A model generated the notes under the pieces. The model was not told the DNA's origin. It saw nothing but the letters and a program-made list of their open reading frames with translations, and did not search any database. Below, in pieces: positions 12,121 to 18,533 of a DNA stretch of 51,893 nucleotides (position 1 is the stretch's first letter; the number at the start of each line of letters is the position of its first letter). Position numbers and translations under genes: made by a program. Source of the DNA: Candidatus Thorarchaeota archaeon. GTDB lineage: Archaea; Asgardarchaeota; Thorarchaeia; Thorarchaeales; Thorarchaeaceae. The DNA lies in contig JBHLRZ010000024.1 in the NCBI GenBank assembly GCA_048882045.1, positions 1 through 51,893 of the forward strand. The letters run 5' to 3'.

Positions 12121-12139
12121 GGAGCGCATGTAGCGCTCC
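12121..12139 (-). terminator. GC-rich hairpin plus U tract after the Kelch gene
   Basis: GGAGCGC-N5-GCGCTCC perfect 7-bp stem, then TTCATTTTCTTTCTCT on minus strand. Confidence 0.7.
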
Positions 12140-12147
12140 AATAATGG

Positions 12148-13392
12148 TTACCTTCTCCTTACGAAGATGACAGCCAGTATGAGGATTACAGCAATCCCAC
12201 CGACAGCAACATACACCAGAGTCCAATCAACTCCATTACCTGTCGGAGTAGCTGGAGTAGTTGGAGTTGTAGTTGTGGGTGTTGTTGTAGGTCCCATTTC
12301 CTCCCACGTATTTGCATTTACATCATATGCCCAAATCATACCGTCAGTTTCAGTTATCAGAACAGTGCTAGAGAATCCCAATCGTGTGCCTCCAAAAATG
12401 ACCACTCTGTCTGACTCCCAGTCGTATGCTGAACCGTGACGACTACGGGTGTCTGGATGAATGGACGGACTCATCTCTGTCCAAGTCACTGTATTATAAT
12501 CAAACACCCATGTGTCAGAATAAGCAGTACCACCAGCCGAACCCCCAAACAGTATAATCTTGTCACTCTCGCTGTCATAGGTGAGAGAAGGAACACCTCG
12601 GACAGATGGACTAGTTGAGGGTGTAATGTTGCTCCAGGTGTCAGTGTTGAAATCATACGCCCAAGTATCTCCGAAGTAGTTACTTAGCTGATTTGCTCCA
12701 GTGCCATCATATCCTCCAAACATTATCACTCTGTCACTCTCTGAGTCATATACCATCTTGTGAGCGAATCTTGATGGTGGTGCAACTGAAGGATTCATCT
12801 CTGTCCACACATTTGTCCCTGCATCGTAAGACCAGGTTTCGTTGAGCACATTACCATCTTCTCCACCGAATACAATGAAACGATCACTCTCTGAATCATA
12901 CACCATATCGTGAGCTCGTCGCTCTGAAGGAGCTGATGTAGGAAAGACCTCAGTCCATGTGTCCGAATTTGTATCGTATAGCCAAGTGTCATTTAGTCTA
13001 TCATTGATGTTTATATCTCTCATACCACCAAACAGGACTATATTGTCTCTTGAGGAATCATATGCAAGACCGGGTTCAGCTCTCCCATCTGGAGCGGGAG
13101 AAGGACTCGTTCGTACAGAAGCATCATTATTGTAATCATATGTCCAGACATCCTTCTTGGCTGCAGTTGTGGGCGTATTGTTCCATCCTCCGAATATTAC
13201 AATACGGTCTGATTCGTTGTCATATGCCATCCCAGGATTTCCTCGAGTTGGAAGGTTTTCGTCTTCCGAAATGGTGAACGTATAGGGAGTAGCCCTAGGA
13301 GTTGAATATGCAATGGGCACCAATCCGAATGTCATCACAATCAGAATAGTTCCTGCAAAAATTTCACGTTTATATTCCTTCAAATCTGGCAA
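12148..13392 (-). CDS. Cell-surface 6-bladed Kelch beta-propeller protein
   Basis: Six R...YD.ESD....FGG...DTW.YD....W repeats; signal peptide, Thr/Pro linker, C-terminal TM + RRR; TTG 13392 preceded by GAGGAGGT (track start 13470 lies in the promoter). Confidence 0.9.
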   Translation of the reverse strand: MPDLKEYKREIFAGTILIVMTFGLVPIAYSTPRATPYTFTISEDENLPTRGNPGMAYDNESDRIVIFGGWNNTPTTAAKKDVWTYDYNNDASVRTSPSPAPDGRAEPGLAYDSSRDNIVLFGGMRDININDRLNDTWLYDTNSDTWTEVFPTSAPSERRAHDMVYDSESDRFIVFGGEDGNVLNETWSYDAGTNVWTEMNPSVAPPSRFAHKMVYDSESDRVIMFGGYDGTGANQLSNYFGDTWAYDFNTDTWSNITPSTSPSVRGVPSLTYDSESDKIILFGGSAGGTAYSDTWVFDYNTVTWTEMSPSIHPDTRSRHGSAYDWESDRVVIFGGTRLGFSSTVLITETDGMIWAYDVNANTWEEMGPTTTPTTTTPTTPATPTGNGVDWTLVYVAVGGIAVILILAVIFVRRR

Positions 13393-13475
13393 ATTAGATT
13401 TACCTCCTCTCCAAATTTCATTGTAGTTTTCATACAACAACAATTTGCAGTGTCTACAACGAGATTCCAAGTAGG

Positions 13476-13550
13476 TATATAATCGTTCTATTCAAATTCG
13501 ATAGAATTGTAACCTCGAGAGTTCTCGAAGTCAGATTGAGAACACTCGAA
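13476..13550 (-). promoter_or_regulatory. Promoter/operator cassette copy 1
   Basis: TATA (minus TTATATA) 13476-13482; TTC-N10-GAA 13491-13506; CTCGAGA-GT-TCTCGAA 13514-13529; extra degenerate site ATTGAGA-AC-ACTCGAA 13535-13550. Confidence 0.85.
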
Positions 13551-13572: not shown

Positions 13573-14700
13573 TCACACACTTCTCGAATTCCTTTTGCCA
13601 TTGGCTCTCTTCTCTAGTATGATGATGATAACGATTACAGCAAAGCTGACTGCACCTGCAGCCAATACAAGTTGAGTGTAATCTATCGGTGGGGGAGTCG
13701 GGGAAGTTGGTGATGAAGGTATAGAAGGTGATGGCAGAATATCTGTAGGGATTGTCCCAGAAGGTATCGTTGTATTCATACCAAACGTTGCATCAAATTC
13801 TAACATTTCATTACCAAAGTTCTTAAACGAGATAAAGACTAATTCAGATGTAAGATTTCCCGGAGTATGGTCATAGAATGGATTCGTGGCGGAACTTGAA
13901 CCTTCCACCTGAATCTGACCAATAGTAGTTGAAGCAGTTGATGAGTACTCCATCCATGCGTCACCATAGTCAAATCTATTTCCTACATGACTGACATTCC
14001 AATTTAGAAATTCATCGTGACCTCCAGAGATTGGATTTACAGTATAGACGTAGTTATACACAATGAAGATGAACACAAGAAGAGAGTCACTGAACGTCCA
14101 GTCCCATCCTGTGACTTTAATTCTGAGGTCGAATTGGTCTAGTGAACTAATGTTGAATTGAGCATCAACATCGAGTGCGAGATCCATATAGTTTGCATGA
14201 CCAGGAATACTAGTCCATCCGCTCACAGTTGGTATCATGTTAGGGTCTTGATGTGCGATTTGAGCTTCGTTTGAATATTCCAGTTCTACAAATTCGTATA
14301 GATACTCGGTGACTTCCCAAGGTAATGGAATTTCATTTACCCACTCTCCTATTCCCCACGTTGGCATTATTGAACCCACAAGCTGGTCTTCTTCAGGATT
14401 GAACATATCATCATTGTTTATATCATTCGCTTCGAATATTCCCGAAAAGTCAAAGGAATAGTGACTTGTGTTGTTATCAAACCATAGATCACTAGAATTT
14501 GAAATTGAGAAACTTGGTAACCAAACTCCGTATGCACCAGCTCTAACATTTATTGCTCCGGTACTGATCGTATAACTACACATATCATAATCACATATGT
14601 AGATACGAATTCCGATTGATTGCTGGGCTTCAGTATATGGCAATGCTGCTACTAGACCCAAAACAGCAAGTGCAATTATTACTCGCCTTTTTGTGGTCAT
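13573..14700 (-). CDS. Secreted, C-terminally anchored beta-rich surface protein, hypothetical
   Basis: Signal peptide, D-x-N-x-D Ca-loop-like motif (EANDINNDDMF), Pro/Ser/Thr linker, C-terminal TM + basic tail; AGGTGA SD. Confidence 0.8.
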   Translation of the reverse strand: MTTKRRVIIALAVLGLVAALPYTEAQQSIGIRIYICDYDMCSYTISTGAINVRAGAYGVWLPSFSISNSSDLWFDNNTSHYSFDFSGIFEANDINNDDMFNPEEDQLVGSIMPTWGIGEWVNEIPLPWEVTEYLYEFVELEYSNEAQIAHQDPNMIPTVSGWTSIPGHANYMDLALDVDAQFNISSLDQFDLRIKVTGWDWTFSDSLLVFIFIVYNYVYTVNPISGGHDEFLNWNVSHVGNRFDYGDAWMEYSSTASTTIGQIQVEGSSSATNPFYDHTPGNLTSELVFISFKNFGNEMLEFDATFGMNTTIPSGTIPTDILPSPSIPSSPTSPTPPPIDYTQLVLAAGAVSFAVIVIIIILEKRANGKRNSRSV

Positions 14701-14733
14701 TGATAGTCACCTGTGTGTACGAAGCGATTTAGG

Positions 14734-14787
14734 TATATAATCGTTCTATTCCAATTCAGTTGAAATGCCATTTCGATACTTCTCGAA
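14734..14787 (-). promoter_or_regulatory. Promoter/operator cassette copy 2
   Basis: TATA 14734-14740; TTCCAATTCAGTTGAA 14749-14764; TTCGATA-CT-TCTCGAA 14772-14787; 14734-14766 is 33/33 identical to copy 3. Confidence 0.85.
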
Positions 14788-14801
14788 CTCATTCGAACAC
14801 C

Positions 14802-15629
14802 TCAGACCAATGCAACACTTATGACAGCGAGAAGGAGAAGATTCAGATTTGTGACTATCAGAGTTACAATTACTGCACGCGATTTCCTCACTGTCTTTGC
14901 TCTAGCAAGAGCTATTGTTAGAATTCCTGTACTCCAAGCGATAATGCAAGTCAAGATTATCGTAAGCAACCAGCCACTAAGAACGTTCAAAGTGGGAATA
15001 AAGTACCACATGAGCTCGATGAGGATATGAGGTATAAAAGCCATGGGCACTGATGCAAGGAGTTCTCTTGAAAGACCCGGCTTCTTCAGAATAGGAACTG
15101 ACAAACCCTCAACGAATAAGTATGTACTCAACCATGCAACCAAAGCTGCAAGTATCGTAATTCCTGTATCGAAGGTTCCTTGCAGAAAGAATAGGAAGAC
15201 CGGTAGGAAACCCACCTCTGAAGCAAAGTAGCCATATAGCCCGAGAAATACTACAATCTCAAAAAAGAACCTAAATGGATCCGCTTGAATTCGTTTAATT
15301 ATCGGTTCCATGCTCAGCGCTTTTTGAATGAGGTATGTAGCTGTGCGTTCTCCCTCTTCTGCAGGTGAAACTCCCTCAACCTGATCCTCACTATGCTGGA
15401 TTATTGTGTATGCTGCCTGTCCCAAGTCTGTAAGTGAATATAGCTTGTCTCCGGGTCGTAACACTAAGGGATTATCCGATTTGGAAAGGTTATCCAGATG
15501 GAAATATAATGTACCAGGTTCTAATCCTAACTCTGAAAGGTCAGTGTATGAGACTGCTCCTTGATCTCCAATCATCATGATGATCTGGCGTCTAATCTTG
15601 TGTGATATTGCGCTCAGTACATCATCCAT
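14802..15629 (-). CDS. Membrane-tethered ArsR-like wHTH transcriptional regulator with ~5-TM (Yip1-like) C-terminal domain
   Basis: AISHKIRRQII, VSYTDL, GTLYFHL..L, YSLTDLG wHTH motifs, then ~5 TM helices; last hairpin W...IL..AL...K.V..SRA resembles Yip1. Confidence 0.85.
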   Translation of the reverse strand: MDDVLSAISHKIRRQIIMMIGDQGAVSYTDLSELGLEPGTLYFHLDNLSKSDNPLVLRPGDKLYSLTDLGQAAYTIIQHSEDQVEGVSPAEEGERTATYLIQKALSMEPIIKRIQADPFRFFFEIVVFLGLYGYFASEVGFLPVFLFFLQGTFDTGITILAALVAWLSTYLFVEGLSVPILKKPGLSRELLASVPMAFIPHILIELMWYFIPTLNVLSGWLLTIILTCIIAWSTGILTIALARAKTVRKSRAVIVTLIVTNLNLLLLAVISVALV

Positions 15630-15754
15630 TGTGGAGTCTTTTTCTTTCAGAATAATCCCCCATCAAAGTTCCTTATCCTAGATATTGTTGGTTTGATCGC
15701 GATACTTTCCTCATGCATTCATAAAATCGCATAGTTTGCAGTTGTTCAAAAGAC

Positions 15755-15808
15755 TATATAATCGTTCTATTCCAATTCAGTTGAAATCGGACTTCGAGAA
15801 ATCTCGAA
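15755..15808 (-). promoter_or_regulatory. Promoter/operator cassette copy 3 (upstream of the regulator)
   Basis: TATA 15755-15761; TTCCAATTCAGTTGAA 15770-15785; perfect palindrome TTCGAGA-AA-TCTCGAA 15793-15808. Confidence 0.85.
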
Positions 15809-15862
15809 ATAAATGCATTAAGAGAACGAAGTTCATTAGAGCTTTTGTACCTCTGTGGAGCC

Positions 15863-16600
15863 ATGTCTGTGAACTTTGAAGAAGCTGGAAATCCACAGAA
15901 GAGAACTGTCATTTTTGTACATGGAGCTGGCGGTTCAGCCGCTACCTGGTTCATGCAGCTTCGAGGTCTCTCGAATTATTTTCACATTGTAGCCATTGAA
16001 TTGAATGGCCATGGAAAGACCTCTGACCGCGGCGAGGGAGATCTTCTACACTCGTACCTGCATGATATCCACGAAGTAATGTCCAAGTATGAAAAGCCAA
16101 TATTGGCAGGTCATAGCATGGGGGGTGCCTTGACACAACTATACGCACTGAATCACCCCGAACATCTTACTGGAATCATTCTCGTTGGCACTGGCGCTAG
16201 GCTCAGAGTGACTCCATTGGTCTTCGAGAGTCTTGACAATGATCTTGAAACATACGTGAATCTTACTGATCAGTTTATGTTTCATGAGAGCACATCAGAT
16301 GAAATTCGAGAGGCTTCGAAGCATGAAGTTAGAAAGTGTTCAGTTCATATAATCCGAAGAGACTTCGAACTCTGTGATAGGTTCGATATAATGGACAAAG
16401 TTTCCGGTATCAGGATTCCTACTCTGATATTGGTTGGAATTAGTGATATCATGACTCCAATCAAATATTCCTCATTCCTGAAGGACAAGATTGATGGCTC
16501 AACCATGAAAGTGATTGAGGGTGCAGGTCATGCAGTCATGCTAGAGAAGTCTAAAACCTTCAACAAACTCATTGTAGAATGGATAAACACATTGGACTAG
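15863..16600 (+). CDS. Alpha/beta hydrolase
   Basis: FVHGAGG, GHG, GHSMGG nucleophile elbow, G..D, AGH. Confidence 0.93.
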   Translation: MSVNFEEAGNPQKRTVIFVHGAGGSAATWFMQLRGLSNYFHIVAIELNGHGKTSDRGEGDLLHSYLHDIHEVMSKYEKPILAGHSMGGALTQLYALNHPEHLTGIILVGTGARLRVTPLVFESLDNDLETYVNLTDQFMFHESTSDEIREASKHEVRKCSVHIIRRDFELCDRFDIMDKVSGIRIPTLILVGISDIMTPIKYSSFLKDKIDGSTMKVIEGAGHAVMLEKSKTFNKLIVEWINTLD

Positions 16601-16998: not shown

Positions 16999-17129
16999 TG
17001 TGATAGACTCCTCCAGATACAAGTACCGACACCCGTTCTTAATCCTTCCCACAAATAGACTTCCCTCATTGTTAAATATCGGCAATGGTCAATGACTCTG
17101 TCTTTCAAACTTCAATTGGAGAGAAACGA

Positions 17130-18533
17130 ATGACAGAATCAGAAGTTGTTCCAACTGATAGAAAAGAACGATTTGGTTGGTATTTGTATGATCTAGCAAA
17201 CACTAGCTTTACAGTTCTTATAGTAACAGCATTGTTTCCACTATATTTCAGAGTACTTGTCTGGAATGAAACTCTTGGAGATGCTTTGTGGGGCTACGCC
17301 GGTAGCGTGACAATGCTGATAATAGCACTTACAGCTCCAATACTTGGAGCGATTGCTGACTTTGGAGGAACAAAGAAGAAGTTTGTAATCTTCTATACAT
17401 CTGTATGTATTGCTCTAACTTCATTCATGGTGTTCCTTCCAGGTCTCACGCAGTCACAAATTGACACAATTCCAGATATACGACCTCCTAGCCCATTACC
17501 TCTTTTCGACTTTCCACCCTTCCTAGGTTTGGACATCTGGGTCTGGGCTTGGATCATTTTCATTGTCGCAAACGTTGGATTCCAAGGTGCATTACCCTTT
17601 TACAACGCTTGGTTGCCAGAGATTAGCACTGAGGAGAACATCGGTAGAATAGGGGGCTATGGCTTTGCAGCTGGATATGTTGGAGCTATGGCTACAATTG
17701 TCATTGCTCTAGGAGTTATCCTAGCTGATCTTCCTTACACATACGCATTCTTTGCAAGTGCAATATTCTTTCTTGTCTTTGCTATACCAAGTATCAAATG
17801 GTTAAAGAACAGACCTCCGAAAGTATTTCCAGGAGAAGAAGGTAAATCTCTAGTCAGTTTAGGCTATGGAAGAGTGCGTAACACTCTACGGCACATCCGA
17901 GATTACAAAGGGCTGCCTCTCTTTCTAGTTGCATACTTTCTCTTTAGCGACGCAATCACTACCGTGATTTACTATGCCGCGATTTTTGGACAAGCTGTGT
18001 ACATGTTCAGTACAACAATGATACTTGTTTTCTTCGCTGTGACTCAACTCGCTGCAATACCTGGGGCTTTCGTCTTTGGGGTCGTGGCTGATCGAATTGG
18101 AACAAAGAAGACACTGATTATCACACTTTTCATCTGGGTGATTGCATTAGCACTTGCCTACTTGTTTGTCGCATATGGAGCACTTGTGTGGTGGACAGTT
18201 GGTATGATTGCTGGTGTGGGTATGGGCTCATCCCAGAGCACTGCTCGTAGCATGTATGGACAGTTTATACCAGAGGACAAAAAATCAGAGATGTACGGGT
18301 TCTATGCACTGACTGGAAAGTTTGCAGCCATTTTAGGACCATTCGTGTATGCTAGCGTACTCTTGCTTGCCAATCCGACCCAGAGTGCTGCACTGGTAGC
18401 TCAGTCACATCTAACGGCTATGCTGGTCATTCTGTTATTCTTCGTAGTTGCAATTCTCCTTCTATTGAAAGTACGACAACCAGTAAAGGGAGAAGCGAAG
18501 GTCTACTTGGAAGACGATCAACCATTTGTCTAA
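17130..18533 (+). CDS. MFS transporter, UMF1/Atg22-like family
   Basis: WYLYDLANT, P.LGAIAD..G.KK, FYNA.LP, G...GY.G, ~12 TM. Confidence 0.9.
   Translation: MTESEVVPTDRKERFGWYLYDLANTSFTVLIVTALFPLYFRVLVWNETLGDALWGYAGSVTMLIIALTAPILGAIADFGGTKKKFVIFYTSVCIALTSFMVFLPGLTQSQIDTIPDIRPPSPLPLFDFPPFLGLDIWVWAWIIFIVANVGFQGALPFYNAWLPEISTEENIGRIGGYGFAAGYVGAMATIVIALGVILADLPYTYAFFASAIFFLVFAIPSIKWLKNRPPKVFPGEEGKSLVSLGYGRVRNTLRHIRDYKGLPLFLVAYFLFSDAITTVIYYAAIFGQAVYMFSTTMILVFFAVTQLAAIPGAFVFGVVADRIGTKKTLIITLFIWVIALALAYLFVAYGALVWWTVGMIAGVGMGSSQSTARSMYGQFIPEDKKSEMYGFYALTGKFAAILGPFVYASVLLLANPTQSAALVAQSHLTAMLVILLFFVVAILLLLKVRQPVKGEAKVYLEDDQPFV

Follow-up and report, generated by a model that had tools for sequence, protein, structure and literature searches.

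A winged-helix protein with a Yip1-like membrane domain and its single-pass neighbour look like a surface-to-gene switch in Asgard archaea

What does a protein sense, and what does it control, when it joins a winged helix of the DNA-binding type to a membrane domain resembling Yip1? The question is raised by a gene of 275 codons in a 51,893-nucleotide stretch of DNA from Candidatus Thorarchaeota archaeon (assembly GCA_048882045.1, contig JBHLRZ010000024.1), which we refer to as the window. The gene, whose product we call the regulator, is followed on the same strand by genes for two type-I membrane proteins: one with an ectodomain like that of the lysosomal protein GLMP, here called the partner, and one with Kelch repeats. 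From the architecture of the regulator, the conservation of the partner gene beside it and a palindrome common to the three promoters, we propose that the regulator is probably a membrane-tethered one-component transcription regulator whose Yip1-like domain would serve as signal input, perhaps from the partner. The module formed by the two proteins looks like an undescribed surface-to-gene switch.

The open reading frame (ORF) of the regulator contains no other start codon between its ATG and the upstream in-frame stop. Close homologues formed 59 clusters with 52-80% identity, and an exhaustive phmmer search retrieved 225 representative clusters at E≤0.001, mostly full length; the majority of these encode proteins of 265-300 aa that are 21-32% identical to the regulator and whose alignment with it starts in the winged helix and runs on through the final helix. 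Given these two sets of relatives, the ORF is not a chance one. The close homologues come from bins named as Thorarchaeota and related Asgard archaea and are labelled only "winged helix-turn-helix domain-containing protein", "ArsR family regulator" or "hypothetical". An alignment of 25 orthologous sequences had 64% per-column identity, with many invariant positions in both halves of the protein.

An AlphaFold2 model built from the 25-row alignment (mean predicted local distance difference test (pLDDT) score 80.9, predicted template modelling score 0.63) placed a winged helix, with its helices and strands, at residues 2-87, an acidic disordered linker at residues 82-94 (EDQVEGVSPAEEGE; pLDDT below 50), short amphipathic helices at 95-105 and 108-116, and five long helices at 118-139, 155-181, 188-210, 220-245 and 249-274, with a hydrophobic hairpin at 141-150. 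The model thus contains every element that an initial annotation of the window had picked out from the sequence alone, namely the winged helix-turn-helix (wHTH), the acidic linker, the amphipathic segment and about five transmembrane (TM) helices. Two sequence features singled out at the same time, a proline in the MAFIPH motif and a W...L..AL...K...SRA hairpin, were likewise borne out by the 25 orthologues, in which P195, P200, W232, S233, K245, R251 and A252 are invariant or nearly so. R113, Q115, D117 and P118 are invariant in the segment before TM1, and the conserved polar residues E174, N261 and N263 lie within TM helices.

We next used the distribution of lysine and arginine to orient the protein in the membrane. 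Three such residues occur in the flank before TM1 (IKRIQADPFR), three in the loop between TM2 and TM3 (KKPGLSR) and five in the loop between TM4 and TM5 (RAKTVRKSR), while the two remaining loops have none. This distribution places the winged helix in the cytoplasm and the C-terminus outside. The regulator is therefore predicted to have five TM helices with its N-terminus inside, which is the topology of Yip1 proteins.

At the level of single sequences, the resemblance to Yip1 is faint. The Pfam Yip1 model (PF04893; gathering cut-off 28.6 bits) returned nothing for the regulator at E≤1 and matched two of the 25 orthologues at E ~0.1. Among 71 full-length relatives, 26 matched at E≤1 and in register, with scores of 18-28.6 bits over nearly the whole model, one of them exactly at the gathering cut-off. 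A hidden Markov model of 26 canonical Asgard Yip1 proteins (29-82 bits against PF04893, many with an N-terminal zinc ribbon) detected single members of the regulator family weakly, with a best score of 18.9 bits, and the reciprocal search recovered one of the 26. With single-sequence matches this weak, the link to Yip1 needs profile-profile comparison. When the membrane part of the 71 relatives was compared with the 26 canonical proteins by hhalign, the two aligned with 95.3% probability (E 2.3e-8) over 166 columns that cover both domains end to end, as against 0.5% for the reversed Yip1 alignment and 0.6% for the winged-helix part. The alignment pairs the amphipathic segment before TM1, the MAFIPH proline and the W...K...RA hairpin with matching conserved positions of Yip1. 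These profile comparisons place the five-TM domain in the Yip1 superfamily, as a distant branch. The initial reading of the protein as an ArsR-type wHTH joined to a Yip1-like five-helix domain is thus upheld as one of distant homology; the regulator is not classed as a Pfam Yip1 member, as it does not reach the gathering cut-off.

The genome of the window (G000) also encodes a canonical Yip1 protein (G000:C46:8124-8951; locus L013 1339-2166) of 275 aa that scores 72.6 bits against Pfam Yip1. An N-terminal zinc ribbon (CxxC...CxxC) there takes the place of the winged helix, a form that is conserved across Asgard families. A search of the ESM Atlas with residues 96-275 of the regulator gave an archaeal cluster at 0.81 as the best match and, at 0.75, a cluster in which 13% of the members carry DUF6574; both scores are below 0.9, and these matches are leads only.

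The protein encoded directly downstream of the regulator matches no family of Pfam or NCBIfam at E≤1. Its model (pLDDT 78.8) consists of a signal peptide, a large beta-sandwich, a disordered stalk rich in proline, serine and threonine, and a TM helix. The predicted ectodomain is a galactose-mutarotase/GLMP-like beta-sandwich with a loop of the D-x-N-x-D type, and the family conserves the motifs QVPHFxWWN and SGWxW together with an EF-hand-like loop, FEAxDTNxDGxFxPxxD. In the anchor region, the juxtamembrane motif IDYxQL and an AGG motif are conserved and the stalk is not, which suggests a constraint on the partner at the level of the membrane. Like GLMP, the partner combines type-I topology with a mutarotase-like beta-sandwich on the luminal or outer side; with ~10% identity in structural alignments it does not belong to the GLMP family by sequence, and the modelled likeness is one of fold and topology only. 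A literature search found nothing on GLMP-like proteins in Asgard archaea. In the ESM Atlas, where language-model features and structure were compared, the partner (window 13576-14700) had neighbours in Bathyarchaeota and Thermoplasmatota clusters at 0.93-0.94, so the family may reach beyond Asgard.

The partner family has one to five copies per genome in 79 of 151 genomes. One of these, a stand-alone paralogue of 313 aa in the genome of the window (G000:C66:1943-2884), is the copy that almost every genome of the genus retains; it has neither an adjacent regulator nor a palindrome of the kind described below within three mismatches.

Is the neighbourhood of the two genes conserved? We examined ~12 kb around 11 orthologues of the regulator from other genera of the family and around nine distant relatives from other Asgard families; related genomes in these counts are not independent samples. 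A partner-family gene lies directly downstream of the regulator, on the same strand and ~100-150 bp away, in all 11 orthologous loci, where the partner homologues are 20-33% identical and the regulators 46-73%. Several of these loci contain a second copy of the partner, in tandem or divergent upstream. Eight of the nine distant loci have, next to the regulator gene, a gene for a type-I protein, recognised by its signal peptide, C-terminal TM anchor and basic tail, as compared with a background of 130 type-I proteins among 3155 ORFs (4.1%) by the same crude criteria in the genome of the window. In five of the nine, the neighbour belongs to the partner family itself (profile E 1e-10 to 1e-60; hhalign 95.5-99.8%), while the regulators at those loci are only ~27% identical. 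The pairing of regulator and partner has survived divergence to ~27% identity. By cross-reading the coordinates of both profile searches, we found that at least 38 genomes from nine GTDB families have members of the two families no more than ~1.5 kb apart. At one of the five distant loci with a partner-family neighbour (L059 6969-9047; G073:C28), a 692-aa type-I protein with two tandem GLMP-like domains is encoded divergently from a distant member of the regulator family.

Having placed the membrane domain and its neighbour, we turned to the domain expected to contact DNA. The N-terminal part of the regulator has the ArsR/SmtB-type winged-helix fold. The regulator itself scores below threshold against both HTH_20 (15.3 bits, cut-off 27) and NF033788 (16.9 bits, cut-off 55). 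Among the 71 full-length relatives, 66 match HTH_20 (best 2.2e-11) and 68 match DUF7347, and matches of relatives to HTH_20, HTH_5 and DUF7347 reach 1e-11. In the region of the recognition helix, the stretch GTLYFHLDxL, an ArsR/HTH_20 signature, is invariant in the 25 orthologues. Residues 1-95 contain no cysteine, so the regulator is not a thiol-based metalloregulator. Matches to PadR were marginal (E 0.07-2) in searches with the regulator and its orthologues; a sequence search of the PDB with the orthologue profile yielded marginal PadR and PH1932 matches only, and the lists from Foldseek and VIA searches of the PDB with the whole model were taken up entirely by winged helices. In several Asgard genomes, open frames of ~850 aa have an N-terminus that matches the winged helix of the family (E ~1e-23; examples in Table 1), and the same DNA-binding module may thus head a much larger protein.

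A candidate operator is present in front of each of the three genes. The 16-bp palindrome TTCGAGA-N2-TCTCGAA precedes the regulator, GLMP-like and Kelch genes as part of a repeated cassette in which, read in the sense of the gene, the palindrome is followed exactly 31 bp on by the common GAATAGAACGATTATATA stretch of an identical TATA cassette. In the 3.6-Mb genome, seven sites match the palindrome with at most one mismatch, and four of them fall within this 2.5-kb locus, whereas our own arithmetic for 14 fixed bases predicts ~0.6 matches genome-wide. Allowing two mismatches, we found the palindrome in 9 of the 11 orthologous loci (expectation ~0.04 per 12.5-kb locus), always in intergenic DNA directly before a partner-type or Kelch gene; a site of this type between the regulator and partner genes is conserved in other genera. 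The fourth copy in the window (15960-15975, one mismatch) lies inside the 5' part of a divergent ORF for an alpha/beta-hydrolase and was also flagged by the terminator scan as a hairpin followed by a T-run.

We considered whether the winged helix might instead be a protein-protein module, as is found in some eukaryote-like proteins of Asgard archaea. The regulator would then be a Yip1-type membrane factor for the insertion, sorting or turnover of the surface proteins encoded next to it, and some other protein would bind the palindrome. The cytoplasmic N-termini of eukaryotic YIPF proteins do make protein contacts in trafficking (PMC6682643), and the top-50 VIA list includes winged helices outside transcription factors, for instance that of Rio2 kinase. 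The low HTH scores of the regulator could be read in the same way, although its relatives match HTH_20, HTH_5 and DUF7347 down to 1e-11 and the GTLYFHLDxL signature is invariant. A palindrome of a size suited to a dimer, moreover, co-occurs with the regulator gene and is absent at the stand-alone C66 partner paralogue. On this evidence we consider it improbable that the protein is not a transcription factor.

Table 1. Coordinates of the features discussed; positions refer to the window unless another genome and contig are given
Feature	Position	Strand	Basis or remarks
wHTH-Yip1-like membrane protein (regulator) gene	14802..15629	-	ORF with ATG start, 275 aa; stop codon 14802-14804
Cytoplasmic ArsR/HTH_20-type winged helix-turn-helix, residues 1-87	15369..15629	-	Without cysteines
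End of linker and two amphipathic helices, residues 88-117	15279..15368	-	AlphaFold2 model, alignment
Predicted five-TM Yip1-like domain, residues 118-275	14805..15278	-	AlphaFold2 helices, hhalign, Pfam matches of relatives, positive-inside count
Partner/target gene, 375-aa type-I membrane protein	13573..14700	-	Signal peptide, beta-sandwich ectodomain, Pro/Ser/Thr stalk, TM anchor, basic tail
Gene for six-blade Kelch type-I surface protein, third gene of unit	12148..13392	-	Kelch Pfam matches 1e-49
Perfect palindrome TTCGAGAAATCTCGAA upstream of regulator gene	15793..15808	.	Sole perfect copy in the 3.6-Mb genome; within cassette 15751-15812
Palindrome copy, one mismatch, upstream of GLMP-like gene	14772..14787	.	
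Palindrome copy, one mismatch, upstream of Kelch gene	13514..13529	.	Perfect copy at matching place in G002 (L045 position 4645)
62-nt promoter/operator cassette, copy 1	13472..13533	-	D1 direct repeat, reference copy; TATA 13476-13482
62-nt promoter/operator cassette, copy 2	14730..14791	-	D1, 81% identity to reference; TATA 14734-14740
62-nt promoter/operator cassette, copy 3	15751..15812	-	D1, 73% identity to reference; TATA 15755-15761
Terminator-like hairpin and T-run just past Kelch stop	12121..12139	-	Consensus scan only
Winged-helix matches heading ~850-aa frames (examples)	G152:C67:11846-12151; G149:C72:5519-5782; G090:C121:5327-5626		

Does the regulator touch its neighbour, or does it only control it? 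A complex prediction took alignments of regulator residues 96-275 and partner residues 26-375 as its input. The pair scored 0.47 (runs 0.46-0.49) as compared with 0.00 in all three controls, with a contact agreement of at least 82% between runs and a partner pLDDT of at least 69. Of 80 solved complexes, 58 reach the mark used for such predictions, as do 2 of 110 mismatched pairs; passing scores of 0.60 or under were obtained by 7 of the 80 solved complexes and by both of the passing mismatched pairs. The prediction thus lends weak support to a contact, shifting the odds slightly. That the co-regulated single-pass neighbours might be partners of the membrane domain had been suggested in the initial annotation; for the downstream neighbour, the synteny across the phylum, the common operator cassette and the complex score point indirectly in the same direction.

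The same observations can be explained, in part, without any complex. The neighbour may be a target only, and the Yip1-like domain may sense the lipid state, a small solute or another membrane protein, or merely serve as an anchor. An operator before the partner gene in 9 of the 11 orthologous loci would account for the synteny by itself, the partner family is also found without a regulator, and some members of the regulator family adjoin other type-I proteins or none. The conserved polar residues E174, N261 and N263 in the TM helices also speak for this reading, and a channel or receptor role has been raised for Yip1 domains (PMC6682643). Against it stand the conservation of the IDYxQL and AGG motifs of the partner anchor next to a stalk that is not conserved, and the predicted complex, which passed the mark, if weakly, while three controls scored zero. 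We regard it as unlikely, though by no means far-fetched.

If the regulator does take its input from the partner, the pathway from the surface to the promoter would be short. A dimer of the winged helix would bind the 16-bp palindrome, and the regulator would probably activate the three promoters; the palindrome lies upstream of the transcription factor B recognition element (BRE) and TATA box, a position that makes activation probable and fits it without being proof of it. The Yip1-like domain would receive the signal, most likely via the TM or juxtamembrane segment of the GLMP-like protein, and the real sensor would be the outward-facing beta-sandwich of the partner, possibly binding calcium and glycans. 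No kinase would be needed for the state of the surface to be relayed to the promoter, and in this the system would resemble ToxR-ToxS or ArnR.

Bacteria and eukaryotes are both known to release tethered factors by regulated intramembrane proteolysis. Release by proteolysis, which had been listed initially as an alternative, would mean here that the membrane domain keeps the winged helix inactive until a signal-dependent cut in the linker frees it, and the disordered, poorly conserved linker at residues 82-94 would offer an accessible site. No protease gene is conserved in the neighbourhood across the 11 orthologous and nine distant loci, however, and ToxR, CadC and ArnR act while bound to the membrane (PMC6396743 for ArnR). 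We judge this mechanism to be very improbable.

A number of results weigh against our proposal of a partner-fed, membrane-tethered regulator. Besides the lack of a Pfam Yip1 match and the HTH_20 score below threshold, these include the exceptions to the pairing. One distant locus (L061) has no type-I neighbour, and neither does a second full-length member of the regulator family in the genome of the window (G000:C39:6681-7559; profile E 2e-17), a 292-aa protein with a wHTH, several TM helices and an acidic cytoplasmic tail at its end. The partner family also occurs alone, so that it could be merely a regulated output. The complex score falls in the weak band. As for the operator, when the 11 orthologous loci were searched with up to two mismatches, no genome but this one had the palindrome before the regulator gene itself. 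The intergenic DNA of the nine distant loci had no perfect palindrome in repeated copies (arms of 6-7 nt, spacer of 0-10); the criterion was strict, and this negative says little. It is by adjacency and co-conservation that the palindrome is assigned to the winged helix as its putative binding site, and it is the position of the site that favours activation over repression.

We next asked how widely the regulator family is distributed. A profile of the 71 sequences was run against 151 Asgard genomes drawn across the phylum and matched 132 of them at E≤1e-8 and ~90 at E≤1e-30, often with two to seven matches per genome, some of them to the winged helix only. In the homologue searches and in this survey of Asgard genomes, all named members seen were Thor-, Sif-, Hod-, Heimdall-, Hermod-, Odin-, Ran- or Promethearchaeota. 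Within its own genus, the close orthologue is unevenly distributed, with 3 of 25 genomes having it. In the initial annotation, the reading was to count as refuted if the architecture turned out to be that of a widespread characterised family. The family proved to be widespread across Asgard archaea; as to characterisation, our literature search found no publication describing a wHTH-Yip1 fusion. Some members contain in-frame stops (TGA and TAA, or a single TAA: G038:C91:6047-6874, G066:C7:193009-193809 and G083:C91:15115-15915) and may be pseudogenes or assembly errors. DNA of the locus is present in DNA runs from sediment or other metagenomes, and no RNA run is among those listed.

The third gene of the unit has two candidate TTG start codons. 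The start at 13392 lies behind GGAGGAGG and gives a normal signal peptide, while that at 13470 abuts the TATA box, and 13392 is most likely the real start. A Kelch gene at this position is conserved only in the sister species G002. The hairpin just past its stop codon is the probable end of the three-gene unit. A gene for a major facilitator superfamily (MFS) protein at 17085-18533, ~2.4 kb from the GLMP-like gene, was considered as a GLMP-type partner on the pattern of MFSD1-GLMP and was rejected, since no other locus examined has it in synteny.

Membrane-tethered winged helices that work without phosphotransfer are familiar from ToxR-ToxS and CadC, and ToxR works together with a co-encoded membrane partner. 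These bacterial proteins have an OmpR-type winged helix, one TM helix and a periplasmic sensor, whereas the regulator has an ArsR-type winged helix and a polytopic membrane domain, and the outward-facing domain is part of a separate protein. In archaea, the closest parallel is provided by ArnR and ArnR1 of Sulfolobus acidocaldarius, membrane-bound one-component activators of surface-structure genes and the sole pair of archaeal membrane-bound transcription factors studied biochemically (PMC6396743). In ArnR, which is found in Sulfolobales and Desulfurococcales, the HTH domain is combined with HAMP-like and sensor domains and with two TM helices at the C-terminus (PMC6396743). The regulator resembles it as an archaeal one-component protein with an N-terminal HTH and C-terminal membrane anchoring. 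ArnR binds boxes upstream of the promoters of cell-surface genes and activates them, and here the position of the palindrome suggests a similar arrangement. In contrast to the described architecture of ArnR, the linker of the modelled regulator leads directly into five TM helices of Yip1-like type, with no HAMP or soluble sensor domain; the regulator also belongs to another lineage and has a conserved gene for a single-pass partner.

A winged-helix factor has been linked to the Yip1 clan before, in the HAAS-PadR dyads, in which the factor is coupled to a module of the Pfam Yip1 clan (DUF1700, DUF1129) and which were put forward as a substitute for two-component systems in signalling at the bacterial envelope (PMC11237479). 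HAAS itself has three helices, lies in the cytoplasm and sits on a protein of its own; it is accompanied by a stand-alone PadR gene and occurs mostly in bacteria. The regulator differs from such a dyad in being a single polypeptide in which an ArsR-type domain, with marginal PadR matches, is fused to a full five-TM Yip1-like domain. As for the partner, it has no sequence-level match to the GLMP of the MFSD1-GLMP complex (PDB 8r8q), and the candidate for the polytopic subunit is here the Yip1-like regulator rather than an MFS transporter. GLMP serves a lysosomal transporter as its accessory subunit, and the likeness of the partner to it is, at the level of fold only, a lead towards eukaryote-like membrane biology.

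The regulator shares with canonical prokaryotic Yip1 proteins (PF04893) the five TM helices, the amphipathic segment before TM1, the TM3 proline, the W...K...A hairpin and a length of ~275 aa. At the N-terminus, the canonical proteins have either a zinc ribbon or no domain at all, and they exceed the Pfam cut-off, which the regulator does not reach. Yip1 is counted among the eukaryotic signature proteins of Asgard archaea, yet it occurs in all three domains of life (bioRxiv 10.64898/2026.10.28.762692). No role has been described for the prokaryotic members, and a channel, transporter or receptor role of the eukaryotic YIPF proteins has only been speculated upon (PMC6682643). Fused to a DNA-binding domain, and accompanied by a partner gene that is conserved and a 16-bp site that is defined, the Yip1-like domain here offers a simple read-out of what such a domain senses. 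The regulator family, which is present in most of the Asgard genomes searched and often in several copies, may be a main route from surface proteins to gene expression. Eukaryotic YIPF proteins such as Yip1p and Yif1p have the same five-TM topology and a cytoplasmic N-terminal region that binds effectors; they act in traffic between the endoplasmic reticulum and the Golgi and bind Rab GTPases, whereas nothing in the regulator points to a GTPase and the homology is remote. It is conceivable, if doubtful, that at its root the Yip1 domain is a transmembrane receiver that docks a single-pass anchor and relays to an N-terminal module, which would be DNA-binding in Asgard archaea and Rab/GTPase-binding in YIPF proteins. 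If so, the system described here would be the first among prokaryotic Yip1 systems in which the input can be read in the partner and the output in the operator, and which has a direct assay.

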